A stretch of 64,000 nucleotides of DNA from a virus, in the IMG/VR virus record IMGVR_UViG_3300036770_003016; one strand, given 5' to 3'. Of this stretch, positions 20,639 through 50,523 are shown in pieces. Both the position numbers and the translations under genes were made by a program. How positions within the stretch are numbered: the stretch's first letter is position 1; each line of letters opens with the position of its first letter. Under the pieces are notes generated by a model that did not search any database, was not told the DNA's origin, and worked only from the letters and a program-made list of their open reading frames with translations.

Positions 20639-21343
20639 TTAGTCCCACAGATTTCTGTAGTACTTACCAAACAGTCTTGTACCGTTATTGATTCGTTCAT
20701 TGTACTTTTCGTAACCTTCACGATCAAACTCTGCGGTGTGATTTGGTCCCCTCTCAAAAGTATAAAGAGTTGGTTTACCATTCTCATCCCACTCGCAAGG
20801 TACAGACTTCATATCATGTACACCAGTATGGAATTGTGCATCATAGTCATCGTTACATAACTGTTCAAATGCCCAAATCATTTCATCAAGAACCCATTCC
20901 CATCGTGCATGAATATCACAATGACTTTCTTTTGGTTCGTCTTGCTTATAGAAATCAAAAGTTTCTTGTGCATCATATTCTTCATGTGTGATGCAACGAA
21001 GATGTTCTGGTACATCCTCTAAGTCTACCATAGGAGAACCATGCTTAGTCTTTTTCAACTGCTTGAGCATTGGCAGGATGATTGGAGACAATGTTGTATC
21101 CATGTTCCAAGTGTCGTACTTGTCAATCTTGACATACTCAATTCTTGGATGAACAAAATCAAGAAACTTCTGAAACCCAACACAAACAGGATTCAGAAGA
21201 TTGACAAACTTCTCGTACTTGTTTTTTGGATCGTCATCAAGATTATAGATGATGTCTTTGTCTTTTTCCCAAAAACAAATTTTGGTCAAAATTGTATATG
21301 GAGACAACCAATGATTACGATATTTGCTGATGTATACTTTCAC
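20639..21343 (-). CDS. Conserved phage hypothetical protein
   Basis: IDKYDTWNMD.TL..II.PMLKQL; G..LFGKYY..LWD. Confidence 0.7.
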   Translation of the reverse strand: MKVYISKYRNHWLSPYTILTKICFWEKDKDIIYNLDDDPKNKYEKFVNLLNPVCVGFQKFLDFVHPRIEYVKIDKYDTWNMDTTLSPIILPMLKQLKKTKHGSPMVDLEDVPEHLRCITHEEYDAQETFDFYKQDEPKESHCDIHARWEWVLDEMIWAFEQLCNDDYDAQFHTGVHDMKSVPCEWDENGKPTLYTFERGPNHTAEFDREGYEKYNERINNGTRLFGKYYRNLWD

Positions 21344-21364
21344 AATGTTTTCCCATAAAAAAAT

Positions 21365-21698
21365 AAGTGCCGACTGATTGGGTGATAAGGTACAGTCGGC
21401 GAAACCTCAGCTCAGCATGCCTTAGGCAGCTAAAGCGAAACGCTCATCGTTTGCGTTTATTTTATTTACTTTTTACGACTCTCTGTGTCGGATCGTCCAT
21501 CTTTCTACTCTTTGCCCTGTCGAAACCAGGTCAGGCCCATTAGGAAGCATACTAAATCTGCACTTTTTCAGTCGGGGCTATCTGCTATTATGCAGCCTAC
21601 CGGCAGTCCTTGACCGATCTTCATAGTATGCTTTCTGGTGGACCTGGAGGGAATCGAACCCTCGTCCAGAACACCTTTCAATTAACTTCATACGATCA
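21365..21698 (-). ncRNA. ssrA: Circularly permuted (two-piece) tmRNA, tag ANDERFALAA
   Basis: T-arm GAGGG-TTCGATT-CCCTC plus CAGGTCC-ACCA (ends 21636) precedes the 5' acceptor strand GGGCCTG-ACCTGGTTTCGAC (starts 21538); tag ORF 21454-21422; G3:U70 pair; outer ends approximate. Confidence 0.93.
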
Positions 21699-21730
21699 TA
21701 TTACTACTATAACAGAAACTATTTATTTTG

Positions 21731-22048
21731 TCAAGCAGGTTTACCGTTATTTGCCGGTTTAATTTCTTCGCCTGAACTGATAATACAGTATGTTTTGTCG
21801 CCAGGAAAATATTCTACAAGAGTCCAAGATTTAGTCTCAAAATTAATATAAAGAGTAGTGTGAATCTTCATTGGTTGACTAGTAGTAACACTTTCTCTTA
21901 TTGTTGCCATTTGAAATGCTGGTACTTCTTTGTATACTCTAAGCATTTCTCTCATCTGTTCTTCATCACCACAATCGATTGGGATTTGATAGTTTTGAGA
22001 AAATGCAGCCAAAGGAAACATCATTAAAGCTGCGATTAGTGATTTCAT
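21731..22048 (-). CDS. Hypothetical exported protein
   Basis: Signal-peptide-like N-terminus. Confidence 0.6.
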   Translation of the reverse strand: MKSLIAALMMFPLAAFSQNYQIPIDCGDEEQMREMLRVYKEVPAFQMATIRESVTTSQPMKIHTTLYINFETKSWTLVEYFPGDKTYCIISSGEEIKPANNGKPA

Positions 22049-43375: not shown

Positions 43376-43452
43376 TGGTGGCGATGGAAGGATTCGAGCC
43401 TTCGATCTTTTCCGTATGAAGGAACTGCATTTGACCGCTATGCTACATCGCC
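43376..43452 (-). tRNA. tRNA-Met(CAT) elongator
   Basis: Loop TTCATAC, paired 1:72. Confidence 0.85.
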
Positions 43453-43622
43453 ATTAGTGAGAGTACTATCATATCTGTTTAAGGACACTTTTCAGTCCTC
43501 TCTGCATCCCTTAGACTCACCACAAGTCTCGCACCAACGGCGTGGATTCATGCAAAGATGAGTACTACCACGATAGTCTGGCTGCTGGTTAGGCACTTCG
43601 TTCTACAGACTCTCACTAATGG
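43451..43622 (-). ncRNA. Candidate structured RNA closed by 14-bp stem between tRNA-Asn and tRNA-Met
   Basis: CCATTAGTGAGAGT / ACTCTCACTAATGG perfect inverted repeat. Confidence 0.6.
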
Positions 43623-43694: not shown

Positions 43695-43889
43695 ACAGGT
43701 GCTTCCTCTCTGCGGTGGTAATTATAGTGTCTCCAGTTTCGAACCCTTCAACGACACCTTCCACCCACTTCACGACCAAAGAGAATTCTCGCATTGCCAG
43801 CGCCATTTGCTCCAAATGGTAAGGTCCTGTGGGTATCACACCACTTCTCGACATGCGGACCACACTAGCCGTTGATTAGACGGCACGTT

Positions 43890-44125: not shown

Positions 44126-44238
44126 AAAATTTGGTGCTATGTCCTACTTGCAATAGGACTCTAGTCGCAGTTTGAGAGGCATCGTTCCTAGGATCGAGAG
44201 GCACATTCTGCCACAGCGTAAAGCGACGCTGTGCATCT

Positions 44239-44314
44239 TGGTGGAGAGTATCGGGTTCGAACCGATGACCTCCTGCTTGCAAAGCAGGCGTTCTCCCAAC
44301 TGAACTAACTCCCC
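44239..44314 (-). tRNA. tRNA-Ala(TGC)
   Basis: Loop TTTGCAA, G3:U70. Confidence 0.92.
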
Positions 44315-44892
44315 ATATTGAAACACACTATGCCACGCTCTGAACCTGGACTCTTAGTAATGTGTTCGAATATGGTGTTGCTTGTTCCCGTCCGTCGGGC
44401 CAATGTGTCGGGCTTTATTGCTCTCTACCTATTCAGCCATTCCCATCGTCGAGAGTCAATGGGAAACATCTTGACACACCATCTAACTTAGATTACTTTG
44501 CCATTAGGCGTTTCATCTACTAGCAGTCAGCAAACCATATTGAAGCACACTGACAGTATCGAAACTGCCCACACCGCCGAAAGACGATGCTAGGTCCACT
44601 CCCAAGGCCGGCGCCATCTAGCCTTAGTGTGCTTCAATATGGTTGCTGGTTACGACTCCAGCACAATCGTATCGTCATTGTCGCTCGAATCACGCCTGTG
44701 TCTTCGTCAAAGGCTCGCCGCCTTTATACACGCTTCAGGTATTCGTGTTCTGGGATCAGCCCGAGGACTTTTCGGTCCCCACTTACTCCCATATTCAAGC
44801 ACACTCGTTGTAGACTTTCTGTTAGTATCCCTTACGGGTCCCCGCTGGCAGCCCCAATGGCTGGGCCGGGCGACTAAGAATGTGCTTGAATA

Positions 44893-44978
44893 TGGTGGGC
44901 TTCGTTGGAATCGAACCAACGCTTTCTCTTTTCGATTGCTCTACTCAGAGTCGTGCCCCCAGCAAACACCAGAAGCCC
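44893..44978 (-). ncRNA. tRNA-like RNA with aberrant anticodon arm
   Basis: Acceptor GGGCTTC/GAAGCCC-ACCA, T-arm GTTGG-TTCGATT-CCAAC; no 7-nt anticodon loop. Confidence 0.7.
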
Positions 44979-45071
44979 AAATAAACTTTACCATATTGAA
45001 GCGCACTTAGACTACTACCCTACTCGAGCATAGCCTTTCAGAGCTTCACCCAAATGCACTTCAGTATGGTA

Positions 45072-45185
45072 TGGTAGCAGGAGTGGTTGCGATCCACTGC
45101 AGAGCACCGGGATTAAGGCCTTGTAGTTGGCTTGCTCTAGAGTCACCAATCTCTCAGAGGACCAATGACCGGCTTCATACCTGCC
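45072..45185 (-). ncRNA. tRNA-like RNA with large interior
   Basis: GGCAGG/CCTGCT-ACCA stem, T-like arm AGTGG-ATCGCAA-CCACT. Confidence 0.6.
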
Positions 45186-45280
45186 CTACTACCATATTGA
45201 AACACACTGGTCGAAGCAGATACGGAAGACACCCGCTGCTGTTTCCGATGCCTAGTCGGACTCGTCAATGCGCTTCAATA

Positions 45281-45368
45281 TGGTGGGTGGTGATGGTAAC
45301 GCTCCACGAGGCAACTTCCGATCTTATTATGCCGACGGTTTTACAGACCGCTGACCGGGGCACCACCC
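45281..45368 (-). tRNA. Atypical tRNA-Tyr(GTA) lacking D-arm
   Basis: Acceptor GGGTGGT/ACCACCC-ACCA; anticodon arm GCGGT-CTGTAAA-ACCGT; long variable region. Confidence 0.7.
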
Positions 45369-45373
45369 GTATT

Positions 45374-45450
45374 TGGTACACCGTAGGGGATTTGAACCCC
45401 TGATCTTCTCCGTGAAAGGGAGATGTCCTAGGCCGCTAGACGAACGGTGC
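45374..45450 (-). tRNA. tRNA-Glu(TTC)
   Basis: Loop CTTTCAC. Confidence 0.9.
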
Positions 45451-45453
45451 AAG

Positions 45454-45553
45454 TAAACAACACAAATTTTTAAAGAACAATTCATCACATCATGTAGATC
45501 ATTATACACTAAACCTACGAATTGTCAACTACTACTGTTGTAAAAAAACAACA
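45454..45553 (-). promoter_or_regulatory. Internal tRNA-operon promoter with boxA-like leader
   Basis: TTGACA-16-TATAAT (45528-45501), TGTTG-N8-CAACA box 45536-45553, TGTTCTTTAAAAATT at 45479-45465. Confidence 0.75.
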
Positions 45554-45556
45554 GAG

Positions 45557-45634
45557 TGGAAGTACGGGTCGGATTCGAACCGACGAATCAAGAGTTTTGC
45601 AGGCTCCGCCATTAGACCGCTCTGGTACCGTACT
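45557..45634 (-). tRNA. tRNA-Cys(GCA)
   Basis: Loop CTGCAAA, U73. Confidence 0.88.
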
Positions 45635-45639
45635 ATAAC

Positions 45640-45729
45640 TGGTGGAGAATCAGGGAGTCGAACCCTGTGACCCTATTTCTAGAATCTACGGATTAGCAAT
45701 CCGCTGCATTACCATCCTGCCCATTCTCC
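45640..45729 (-). tRNA. tRNA-Ser(GCT)
   Basis: Loop TTGCTAA, long variable arm. Confidence 0.9.
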
Positions 45730-45733
45730 GAAT

Positions 45734-45825
45734 TGGTGGAAGCGGTGAGATTCGAACTCACGGGCCACTTTCATGACCGACAGTTTTCAAGACTGTTGCA
45801 ATAAACCGGACTCTGCCACACTTCC
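45734..45825 (-). tRNA. tRNA-Ser(TGA)
   Basis: Loop CTTGAAA, long variable arm. Confidence 0.9.
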
Positions 45826-45896
45826 ATATGGAAACACATTGCCAAGTAGAGCCATGGTATCTTGTGCGGGAGCAACCCCTACAATGTGCTTTCATA

Positions 45897-45991
45897 TGGT
45901 CCTTGGACTAGGATTCGAACCTAGATCATCCCCTCATCTAGAGGCATCGCCGAGGTATAAGCTCGGAGTTTTACCATTAAACTATCCAAGG
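45897..45991 (-). tRNA. tRNA with TAT anticodon (Ile-UAU) and long variable arm
   Basis: CCGAG-CTTATAC-CTCGG; 95 nt; CCA. Confidence 0.8.
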
Positions 45992-46071: not shown

Positions 46072-46100
46072 AATAAACAACACAAATTTTTAAAGAGCGG

Positions 46101-46139
46101 AAAACAAAAACCCCCGAATTTTTTAGGTTCGGGGGTTTG
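46101..46139 (-). terminator. Intrinsic terminator/attenuator upstream of tRNA array
   Basis: AAACCCCCGAA-CCTAAAAAA-TTCGGGGGTTT-TTGTTTT on - strand. Confidence 0.85.
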
Positions 46140-46163
46140 TGTGAAAAACGATTAAAACTATTT

Positions 46164-46280
46164 TTACGCAAACCCCCCAATATCACTAAAATTGCAATTT
46201 GGTGAGCGATACTCTGCCTGCCATGTGCCTGTTGCACTGGCCTTGAGAGTAATTGTAGTGAAATGTAAGGAAGTTTTCAT
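46164..46280 (-). CDS. Putative 38-aa leader peptide (not in ORF track)
   Basis: MKTSLHFTTITLKASATGTWQAEYRSPNCNFSDIGGFA*; last codons overlap antiterminator strand. Confidence 0.65.
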   Translation of the reverse strand: MKTSLHFTTITLKASATGTWQAEYRSPNCNFSDIGGFA

Positions 46281-46289
46281 AGTTTTATA

Positions 46290-46318
46290 AGTGTATCACT
46301 GTATTTAGTAAAAGTCAA
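46290..46318 (-). promoter_or_regulatory. Promoter for leader/tRNA array
   Basis: TTGACT-17-TACACT; nested late-type CTAAATA 46308-46302. Confidence 0.65.
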
Positions 46319-46347
46319 GCGTCTTTTTTCATGTTTGCCAAAAATAA

Positions 46348-50232: not shown

Positions 50233-50523
50233 CTATTCTCCTAGATAAAATTTAAATCCAGTCATTGAGTCCCAACGAAACGACCGCCATTCTTGTTTTT
50301 CGAGATCAAAAACCGGCTGAGCATCATCGGATTTTACTTTTCCTGTGTTTTTTGGCAATTTTTCTTCAGGAATTTTCGATTCTGCAAGAGTACAAGTCAT
50401 TTTTCGTTCGGATCCATCTTTTTTGACAAAAGAAATCGTCACTGGACCGTCTTTGAGCAGTCCAATGAACCATTTTTTATCTTTTTTCGTCTCAAACGGC
50501 AAAAATTTCAAATCTTTTTCCAT
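50233..50523 (-). CDS. WYL_2/SH3-barrel-like protein
   Basis: F.KKDGSER.M.CTL, VFDLEKQEWRSFR. Confidence 0.75.
   Translation of the reverse strand: MEKDLKFLPFETKKDKKWFIGLLKDGPVTISFVKKDGSERKMTCTLAESKIPEEKLPKNTGKVKSDDAQPVFDLEKQEWRSFRWDSMTGFKFYLGE

Follow-up and report, generated by a model that had tools for sequence, protein, structure and literature searches.

The function of the stable RNAs encoded in the tRNA clusters of phages T4 and T5 has been a puzzle for decades. RNAIII of T5, annotated like RNA2H and RNAIV as a 'stable RNA with unknown functions' (GenBank AY543070), lies in a tRNA operon and has a long stalk that begins on the CCA of the upstream RNA (stalk positions 1-3) and base-pairs with the beginning of the tRNA that follows. 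The species 1 and 2 RNAs of T4 (rnaC and rnaD) are likewise stable RNAs of a T4-type tRNA cluster, rnaC having a T arm at its end. The maturation of tRNAs in T4 involves RNase III (PMC4810235). Here we describe the same design in hundreds of versions, in a family of RNA cassettes recognised in a 64,000-nt stretch of viral DNA (IMG/VR virus record IMGVR_UViG_3300036770_003016, hereafter the window), where six of them (E1 to E6, 44313-45899) stand in a tRNA array on the minus strand, each consisting of a variable insert closed by a stem of nearly identical inverted arms that carry the sequence pattern of an RNase III site.

Like the stable RNAs of T5 and T4, the cassettes are non-coding units delimited by the ends of tRNAs within a phage tRNA operon. 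The annotated ends of T5 RNAIII coincide with the cuts predicted for the cassettes, namely after stem position 7 and 5 nt before the stem end, which leave a 2-nt 3' overhang; the ends of RNA2H and RNAIV are off this register by one. Unlike the cassettes, each T5 stalk has its own sequence, unrelated to that of the cassette arms, and no shared socket or insert exchange has been described for T5. Comparison with RNAIII, RNA2H, RNAIV, rnaC and rnaD gave T-arm or tRNA matches only; cultured phages likewise returned only tRNA matches, and the cassette pattern, at 15-45-nt spacing, was absent from Melnitz, T4 and T5. rnaC and rnaD are not closed by a cassette stem and are closer to the CCA-ending RNAs found between the cassettes than to the inserts.

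T7 R1.1 and the E. coli 16S and 23S rRNA stalks share the RNase III consensus and register with the cassettes, which stand in a boxA-led operon as in rrn, and E3 agrees with R1.1 at 9 of 11 positions, in the 5' arm, and at 8 of 10. The cassettes differ from these stalks in that their loops are exchangeable RNAs of 23-123 nt, the outer half of their stem is made of tRNA ends, and stem position 8 is often G-C or mismatched. The promoter stem-loop cassettes (PeSLs) of T4-type phages are also repeated short elements, at which cross-overs shuffle modules; they are promoters on the flanks of protein genes, whereas the cassettes are RNA processing stems flanking small RNAs. By analogy, the cassettes would work like T5 RNAIII and the T7 and rRNA stalks, without homology to them. 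The mechanism of the stem is itself ordinary; what is new is the reuse of a standard stem as a socket at many sites, the large library of exchangeable inserts and the use of the spacer of transfer-messenger RNA (tmRNA) as a further slot, and it is the standard socket and the library's size that surprise. Because the boundary is fixed and searchable and the predicted ends are exact, the question of function becomes testable in bulk.

Six cassettes in the tRNA array of the window

The window (36% GC) encodes 25 tRNAs and, to judge from its baseplate wedge, gp32 and gp59 families, comes from a large T4-like myophage. A sequence-only reading had proposed hairpin elements at 44313-44375 (E1), 44535-44642 (E2), 44789-44895 (E3), 44991-45069 (E4), 45192-45283 (E5) and 45824-45899 (E6), and all six were recovered at these coordinates on the minus strand, on which the other RNA features given below also lie. 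Twelve arm matches were present against 3.1 expected, and none of 100 shuffles reached 12. As that reading had supposed, the arms pair as RNA on the minus (tRNA) strand, forming in each cassette a terminal stem of 17-19 bp (z = -2.9 to -5.9) that is stabler than the plus-strand fold, and five of the six stems (44313-45283) also appeared when the precursor region was folded whole. Differences between copies had been described as compensatory or as giving G-U pairs on the tRNA strand; the G-U bias to that strand holds, but not all changes are compensatory, with mismatches at stem position 8 in E1 (C.C), position 6 in E4 (C.A) and position 8 in E6 (A.C).

The inserts, rightly described as GC-rich (49-60% GC, compared with 36% for the window), measure 29, 74, 73, 45, 58 and 42 nt in E1 to E6, respectively, and when folded alone were no better than shuffles (z from -1.5 to +0.7). 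The proposed sharing of ends with neighbouring RNAs was confirmed: the opening CCA ends tRNA-Ile(UAU) at E6, which lies between this tRNA and tRNA-Ser(UGA), and a CCA-ending RNA at the other five, and the closing GG forms the start of tRNA-Ala (at E1) and of tRNA-Ser(UGA). In E5 the closing GG starts the RNA at 45067-45193. The insert of E1 belongs to the commonest family, and its predicted released RNA is 51 nt long (44368-44318). The insert of E2 is tRNA-like, with a T-arm-like hairpin adjoining the 3' arm. No relatives were found for the inserts of E3, E4, E5 and E6, a match in locus L580 being due to chance. Two like elements had been overlooked: the tmRNA gene contains a further copy (21537-21641), and between tRNA-Asn, with its CCA, and tRNA-Met lies a cassette of like build whose arms are different (43451-43622); the latter also occurs in the related loci L034, L099 and L112, and its arms match 5 and 8 of 10 RNase III consensus positions.

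A sigma-70 promoter matching the consensus at 12 of 12 positions (45501-45528, minus strand) lies upstream of tRNA-Glu and cassettes E5-E1 and is followed by a boxA of the rRNA-operon type (45467-45479, minus strand); a further boxA (46087-46099, minus strand) opens the tRNA array and precedes E6. Of the boxA motifs in 264 related loci, 83 are on the tRNA strand and one is on the opposite strand. The leader (46100-46320, minus strand) contains a promoter-like site and two long hairpins ahead of the first boxA, with weak attenuator-leader matches only in Rfam.

A family of several hundred cassettes with exchangeable inserts

Searching viral contigs with the 17-nt arm, which gave at least 120 arm matches, and further scans gathered 577 distinct cassettes that fall into 296 insert families, 188 of which were seen once (Chao1 about 640). 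A partner arm was present for 111 of the 120 arm matches listed in viral contigs as against 6 of 120 in bacterial genomes, and the two bacterial-genome cases inspected were short tRNA-dense contigs of metagenome-assembled genomes (MAGs). Two such short, cassette-bearing contigs had been binned into Crocinitomicaceae (L161) and Planktophila (L128) MAGs, and are probably phage DNA rather than evidence of a host. Across the family the stem is 18-19 bp long, with two-sided changes at positions 7, 8, 9, 12, 14 and 18, and G-U pairs outnumber A-C pairs on the tRNA strand by 322 to 46 among 211 distinct relatives. Cassettes lay within 500 nt of a tRNA or tmRNA in 404 of 451 cases. Where a tRNA end was called nearby, the upstream tRNA and the stem overlapped by exactly CCA in 187 of 208 cases, and downstream tRNAs shared one or two G with the stem in 84.

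Inserts are exchanged between cassettes, as their modular layout had suggested: the E1 insert follows many different RNAs, and insert families move between tRNA sites and tmRNA. The insert of E2 recurs in L034 and L068, where a Tyr-like tRNA, this insert and tRNA-Ala are joined directly, like a deletion relative to the window and as expected from a cross-over between arms. No known Rfam family accounts for the cassettes, again as anticipated: a search of Rfam 15, whose families include YrlA, GOLLD, riboswitches and ribozymes, placed none at or near a gathering threshold over a cassette, and in related loci there was none among the 150 matches listed. There are thus about 300 insert families, none matching Rfam where tested. 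A likeness of one insert family to the guanidine-III riboswitch was discarded, with no Rfam match at E 10. The literature searched, with subscription journals largely outside its reach, yielded no description of the cassette family. Cassette-bearing tRNA arrays also hold a GOLLD RNA (L072:1381-1845) and a fragment of a group I intron (L033:13185-13378).

The cassette stem resembles an RNase III site

A weak palindromic consensus, WNAGWGNNCWUNNN^NAWGNNCWCUNW, has been derived for E. coli RNase III (PMC4357697), and the distal box (UA/UG) and the proximal box of its substrates, with A-U at position 2, are biochemically defined (PMC1540722). On both strands of the palindrome, with a 2-nt stagger, the cassette arms score 7-10 of the 10 specified positions each, measured against a consensus that is that of E. 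coli and may not be the host's; both arms of E2 score 10/10, a value reached by shuffled stems in 9 of 200,000 trials over 12 registers. The 5' arm fits the centre of the consensus as CAU-AUU^G-AAG-CA-CACU and the 3' arm is its mirror, so placed that the distal box falls on stem positions 17-16 and the proximal box on positions 11-8.

Conservation was measured in 51 cassettes found via their E1-type insert and not via their arms. In this arm-independent set, positions 17, 16, 10 and 9 (distal box and proximal box 2-3) fit the two boxes in 94-100% of cases and positions 9, 10, 15 and 17 are conserved in 96-100%, while positions 5-8, near the predicted cut, are the most variable, position 8 being paired in only 45%. 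A helix of at least 11 bp separates the distal box from the predicted cut, with positions 8-18 paired (position 18 in 79-87% of cases). RNase III cuts the E. coli 16S stalk at -115 and +33 (PMC8708148). The distance from AGUG to the cut, 12 nt, is equal in that stalk and in the cassettes with their predicted cut. The T7 R1.1 cut position, as we take it to be, gives this same distance. The conserved positions coincide with those that RNase III reads, which makes the remark of the sequence-only reading that the stems might be RNase III sites or processing signals its best-supported part; its further suggestion of release by tRNA-type processing is supported too.

The tmRNA spacer is a seventh cassette

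A circularly permuted tmRNA of betaproteobacterial type is encoded at 21331-21748 with the tag ANDERFALAA, a tag that presumably points to Betaproteobacteria as the host; tmRNA tags in related phages are very varied, some exceeding 30 residues. Between the CCA of its acceptor piece and the 5' end of its coding piece lies a segment (21537-21641) that corresponds to the intervening segment of two-piece tmRNAs (Rfam RF04321, RF01850) and forms a seventh cassette, with a 71-nt insert and the same inner half-site as E1-E6. It has a conserved RNase III-type half-site and draws on inserts common to tRNA spacers, features that may set it apart from bacterial intervening segments. The 71-nt insert recurs in an ordinary cassette of L456 (87% identity), E1-type inserts are also present inside permuted tmRNA genes, and 11 insert families are common to tmRNA and other sites.

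In 52 tmRNA spacers the acceptor stem is continuous with the cassette stem, the two forming a helix of about 22 bp; the CCA end coincides with the predicted cut in 44 of them and lies 1 nt ahead of it in the other 8. This suggests that phage two-piece tmRNAs may be matured by RNase III cutting at CCA or beside it. Position 8 of these spacers is A-U or A.C and never G-C, the 5' A having been fixed by the pattern used to find them. In bacteria, searches for two-piece tmRNAs returned standard tmRNAs only.

Processing, insert function and alternative explanations

We regard as probable a reading in which a sigma-70 tRNA operon with boxA uses RNase III stems as both clamp and socket for a mixed library of small RNAs, likely mimics or decoys. 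The host sigma-70 promoter and boxA would have the array transcribed like an rRNA operon, and host RNase III would cut both paired arms, the 5' one after stem position 7 and the 3' one 5 nt short of its end. The tRNA or tRNA-like RNA upstream would keep its CCA followed by a trailer of 4 nt, which 3' trimming would remove, and RNase P would take a leader of a few nt off the RNA downstream. The freed insert would be an RNA of 50-100 nt with a closing stem of 10-11 bp and a 2-nt 3' overhang that should make it resistant to exonucleases. The near-identity of all arms would let recombination swap, add or delete inserts, the stem doubling as a standard socket. Cleavage of the cassettes by RNase III seems likely, and stable accumulation of the released inserts somewhat probable. 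Rather than a dedicated protein handle, the stem is most likely a clamp that serves processing and stability, and the whole suggests a natural way of expressing small RNAs from a tRNA operon.

Several insert families are under selection, and an effector or decoy function is plausible. T arms occur in 18 of 196 insert families compared with 0.5 in shuffles; in 16 families the T arm stands beside the 3' arm, several of these also having another hairpin as well as arms like the D and anticodon arms, and the E2 insert looks like a member of this class with an atypical loop. Of the roles considered, the likeliest is that inserts bind host RNA-binding proteins, such as tRNA-recognising enzymes or anti-phage nucleases, as mimics or decoys rather than acting as base-pairing guides, although a decoy role is in itself conceivable but doubtful. 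Less likely than not is a broader version in which recombination shuffles several hundred RNA effectors (tRNA mimics, aptamer-like RNAs, decoys) through one RNase III socket, with a turnover like that of counter-defence genes directed at host RNA-sensing or tRNA-cutting defences.

Several observations weigh against this reading. The consensus is called weak by its authors and derives from E. coli (PMC4357697), and the rRNA stalks of Ralstonia and Burkholderia lack the same sequence. With G-C at position 4 of the proximal box, a minimal E. coli RNase III substrate is cleaved 7-14-fold more slowly, while binding is not blocked (PMC1540722). The corresponding stem position 8 holds G-C or C-G in E2-E5, four of the six cassettes, is mismatched in E1 and E6, and is G-C in 15 of the 51 arm-independent cassettes. 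Membership among RNase III substrates is unproven because this catalytic antideterminant is common, an effect that would lower rather than abolish cleavage. The search pattern for tmRNA spacers allowed only 0-2 nt between CCA and half-site, which makes the register test only partly independent. Average insert folding is barely above that of shuffles (mean z -0.37), four of the six inserts in the window are singletons, and conservation of inserts across contexts can also result from recent spread.

Were the stems punctuation only, RNase III would separate the tRNAs and the inserts would be inert loops, tRNA debris or captured sequence, spread by recombination. The high share of families seen once (188 of 296) and the weak average folding are compatible with this, as is the finding that intervening segments of bacterial tmRNAs are thrown away in maturation (PMC11915505). 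We nevertheless consider it unlikely in view of how the inserts are conserved between phages, as the sequence-only reading had asked: the E1 insert is 82-100% conserved at 11 non-query positions across 51 contexts that have 22 different 5' arms between them, compared with 31-61% for the flanks. Two-sided covariation, together with conserved unpaired cores, was found in all 11 multi-member insert families examined. No insert is shorter than 23 nt, whereas a tetraloop would be enough for a cut site, and most tRNAs nearby in the same array have no cassette.

Slightly less likely again is that the stem is bound and not efficiently cut, serving as a handle that presents the insert or as a sponge for RNase III or another double-stranded RNA-binding protein. 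G-C at proximal box 4, which uncouples binding from cleavage, and the strong conservation of the stem sequence would suit such a role. Position 8, however, is often A.C or A-U in the family and was never G-C in the tmRNA spacers, and the stem buries both the CCA end and the 5' end that follows, which have to be released. The separate protein-binding handle first envisaged finds no backing, since the RNase III consensus accounts for the conservation of the stem and no candidate phage protein or family was found among the open reading frames (ORFs) scanned in the window, RNase III, double-stranded RNA-binding and Ro60 families included.

It is very improbable that the inserts act sequence-specifically as guides or antisense RNAs in the manner of CRISPR spacers or RNA anti-CRISPRs. 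A constant flank surrounds a variable core, and the 5' arm often reads AUUGAAAC, which is like the ends of class 1 CRISPR repeats, but this octamer varies with compensation and the arms are inverted rather than direct repeats, unlike a CRISPR repeat-spacer array. Inserts recur intact in many phages, and comparison of the interiors with other DNA gave no match outside cassettes. Antisense matches to E. coli rRNA showed no excess at 8, 9 or 11 nt and were borderline at 10 nt (47 versus 34.5, maximum 49), and matches between inserts were not in excess (58 versus 56), so that the guide-like function once suggested was not upheld. What speaks for guides is that the inserts at L063:1068-1170, L490:1353-1427, L515:5643-5717 and L553:172-246 carry a complement, 9-11 nt long, of the beginning of the E1-type insert. 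The E3 insert begins with a shorter version of this complement. Pairing of the E1 insert with another insert was considered and rejected, the complement occurring in 4 of 62 loci that carry the E1 insert, with no global excess. In the sense orientation, E. coli rRNA 9-10-mers showed a small scattered excess (66 versus 46.6), with none at 8 or 11 nt.

Miniature inverted-repeat elements inserting as DNA at tRNA 3' ends would explain the terminal inverted repeats, the many copies and the fixed place at tRNA ends, but are largely refuted by the G-U bias to one strand, the orientation of the E1-type insert (65 on the tRNA strand, 0 opposite), the lack of inverted insert pairs and of any 3- or 5-bp flanking duplication above chance, and the unrelated interiors of the copies.

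Neighbouring RNAs and genes

The five RNAs between the cassettes are partly conserved in related loci. Two are CCA-ending RNAs: that between E2 and E1 (44373-44534) has relatives in L257, L273, L499 and L071, there too between cassettes, and that between E3 and E2 (44640-44788) has a 3' hairpin and 8 matches in other loci. The tRNA-like RNA at 44893-44978, whose CCA opens E3, has a canonical T arm and scores 31.9 bits against Rfam tRNA. A second tRNA-like RNA (45067-45193), whose CCA opens E4, has a long closing stem and a T-arm-like hairpin, and no relatives of it were found. The fifth (45281-45368), whose CCA opens E5, is an atypical tRNA with a GUA anticodon loop, a short D arm and an atypical T loop, conserved (14 matches) yet missed by ARAGORN and Rfam. 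The tRNA with UAU anticodon and long variable arm at 45897-45991 is conserved in related phages.

Beyond the cassettes, a conserved RNA of about 105 nt (44128-44238) begins directly after the CCA of tRNA-Ala and ends with a T-arm-like hairpin and CCA (7 matches). A non-coding RNA of 195 nt with variable hairpins (43695-43889), without an Rfam match, lies between tRNA-Met and tRNA-Asn and is conserved in many related loci (38 BLAST matches). Pfam matches among the window ORFs from 6555 to 63810 include heme oxygenase, ClpP, MazG, an RF-1 domain, an ADP-ribosyltransferase, WYL_2 (50233-50523), a TnsA-like endonuclease and a sugar-modification cluster with a heptosyltransferase and an epimerase.
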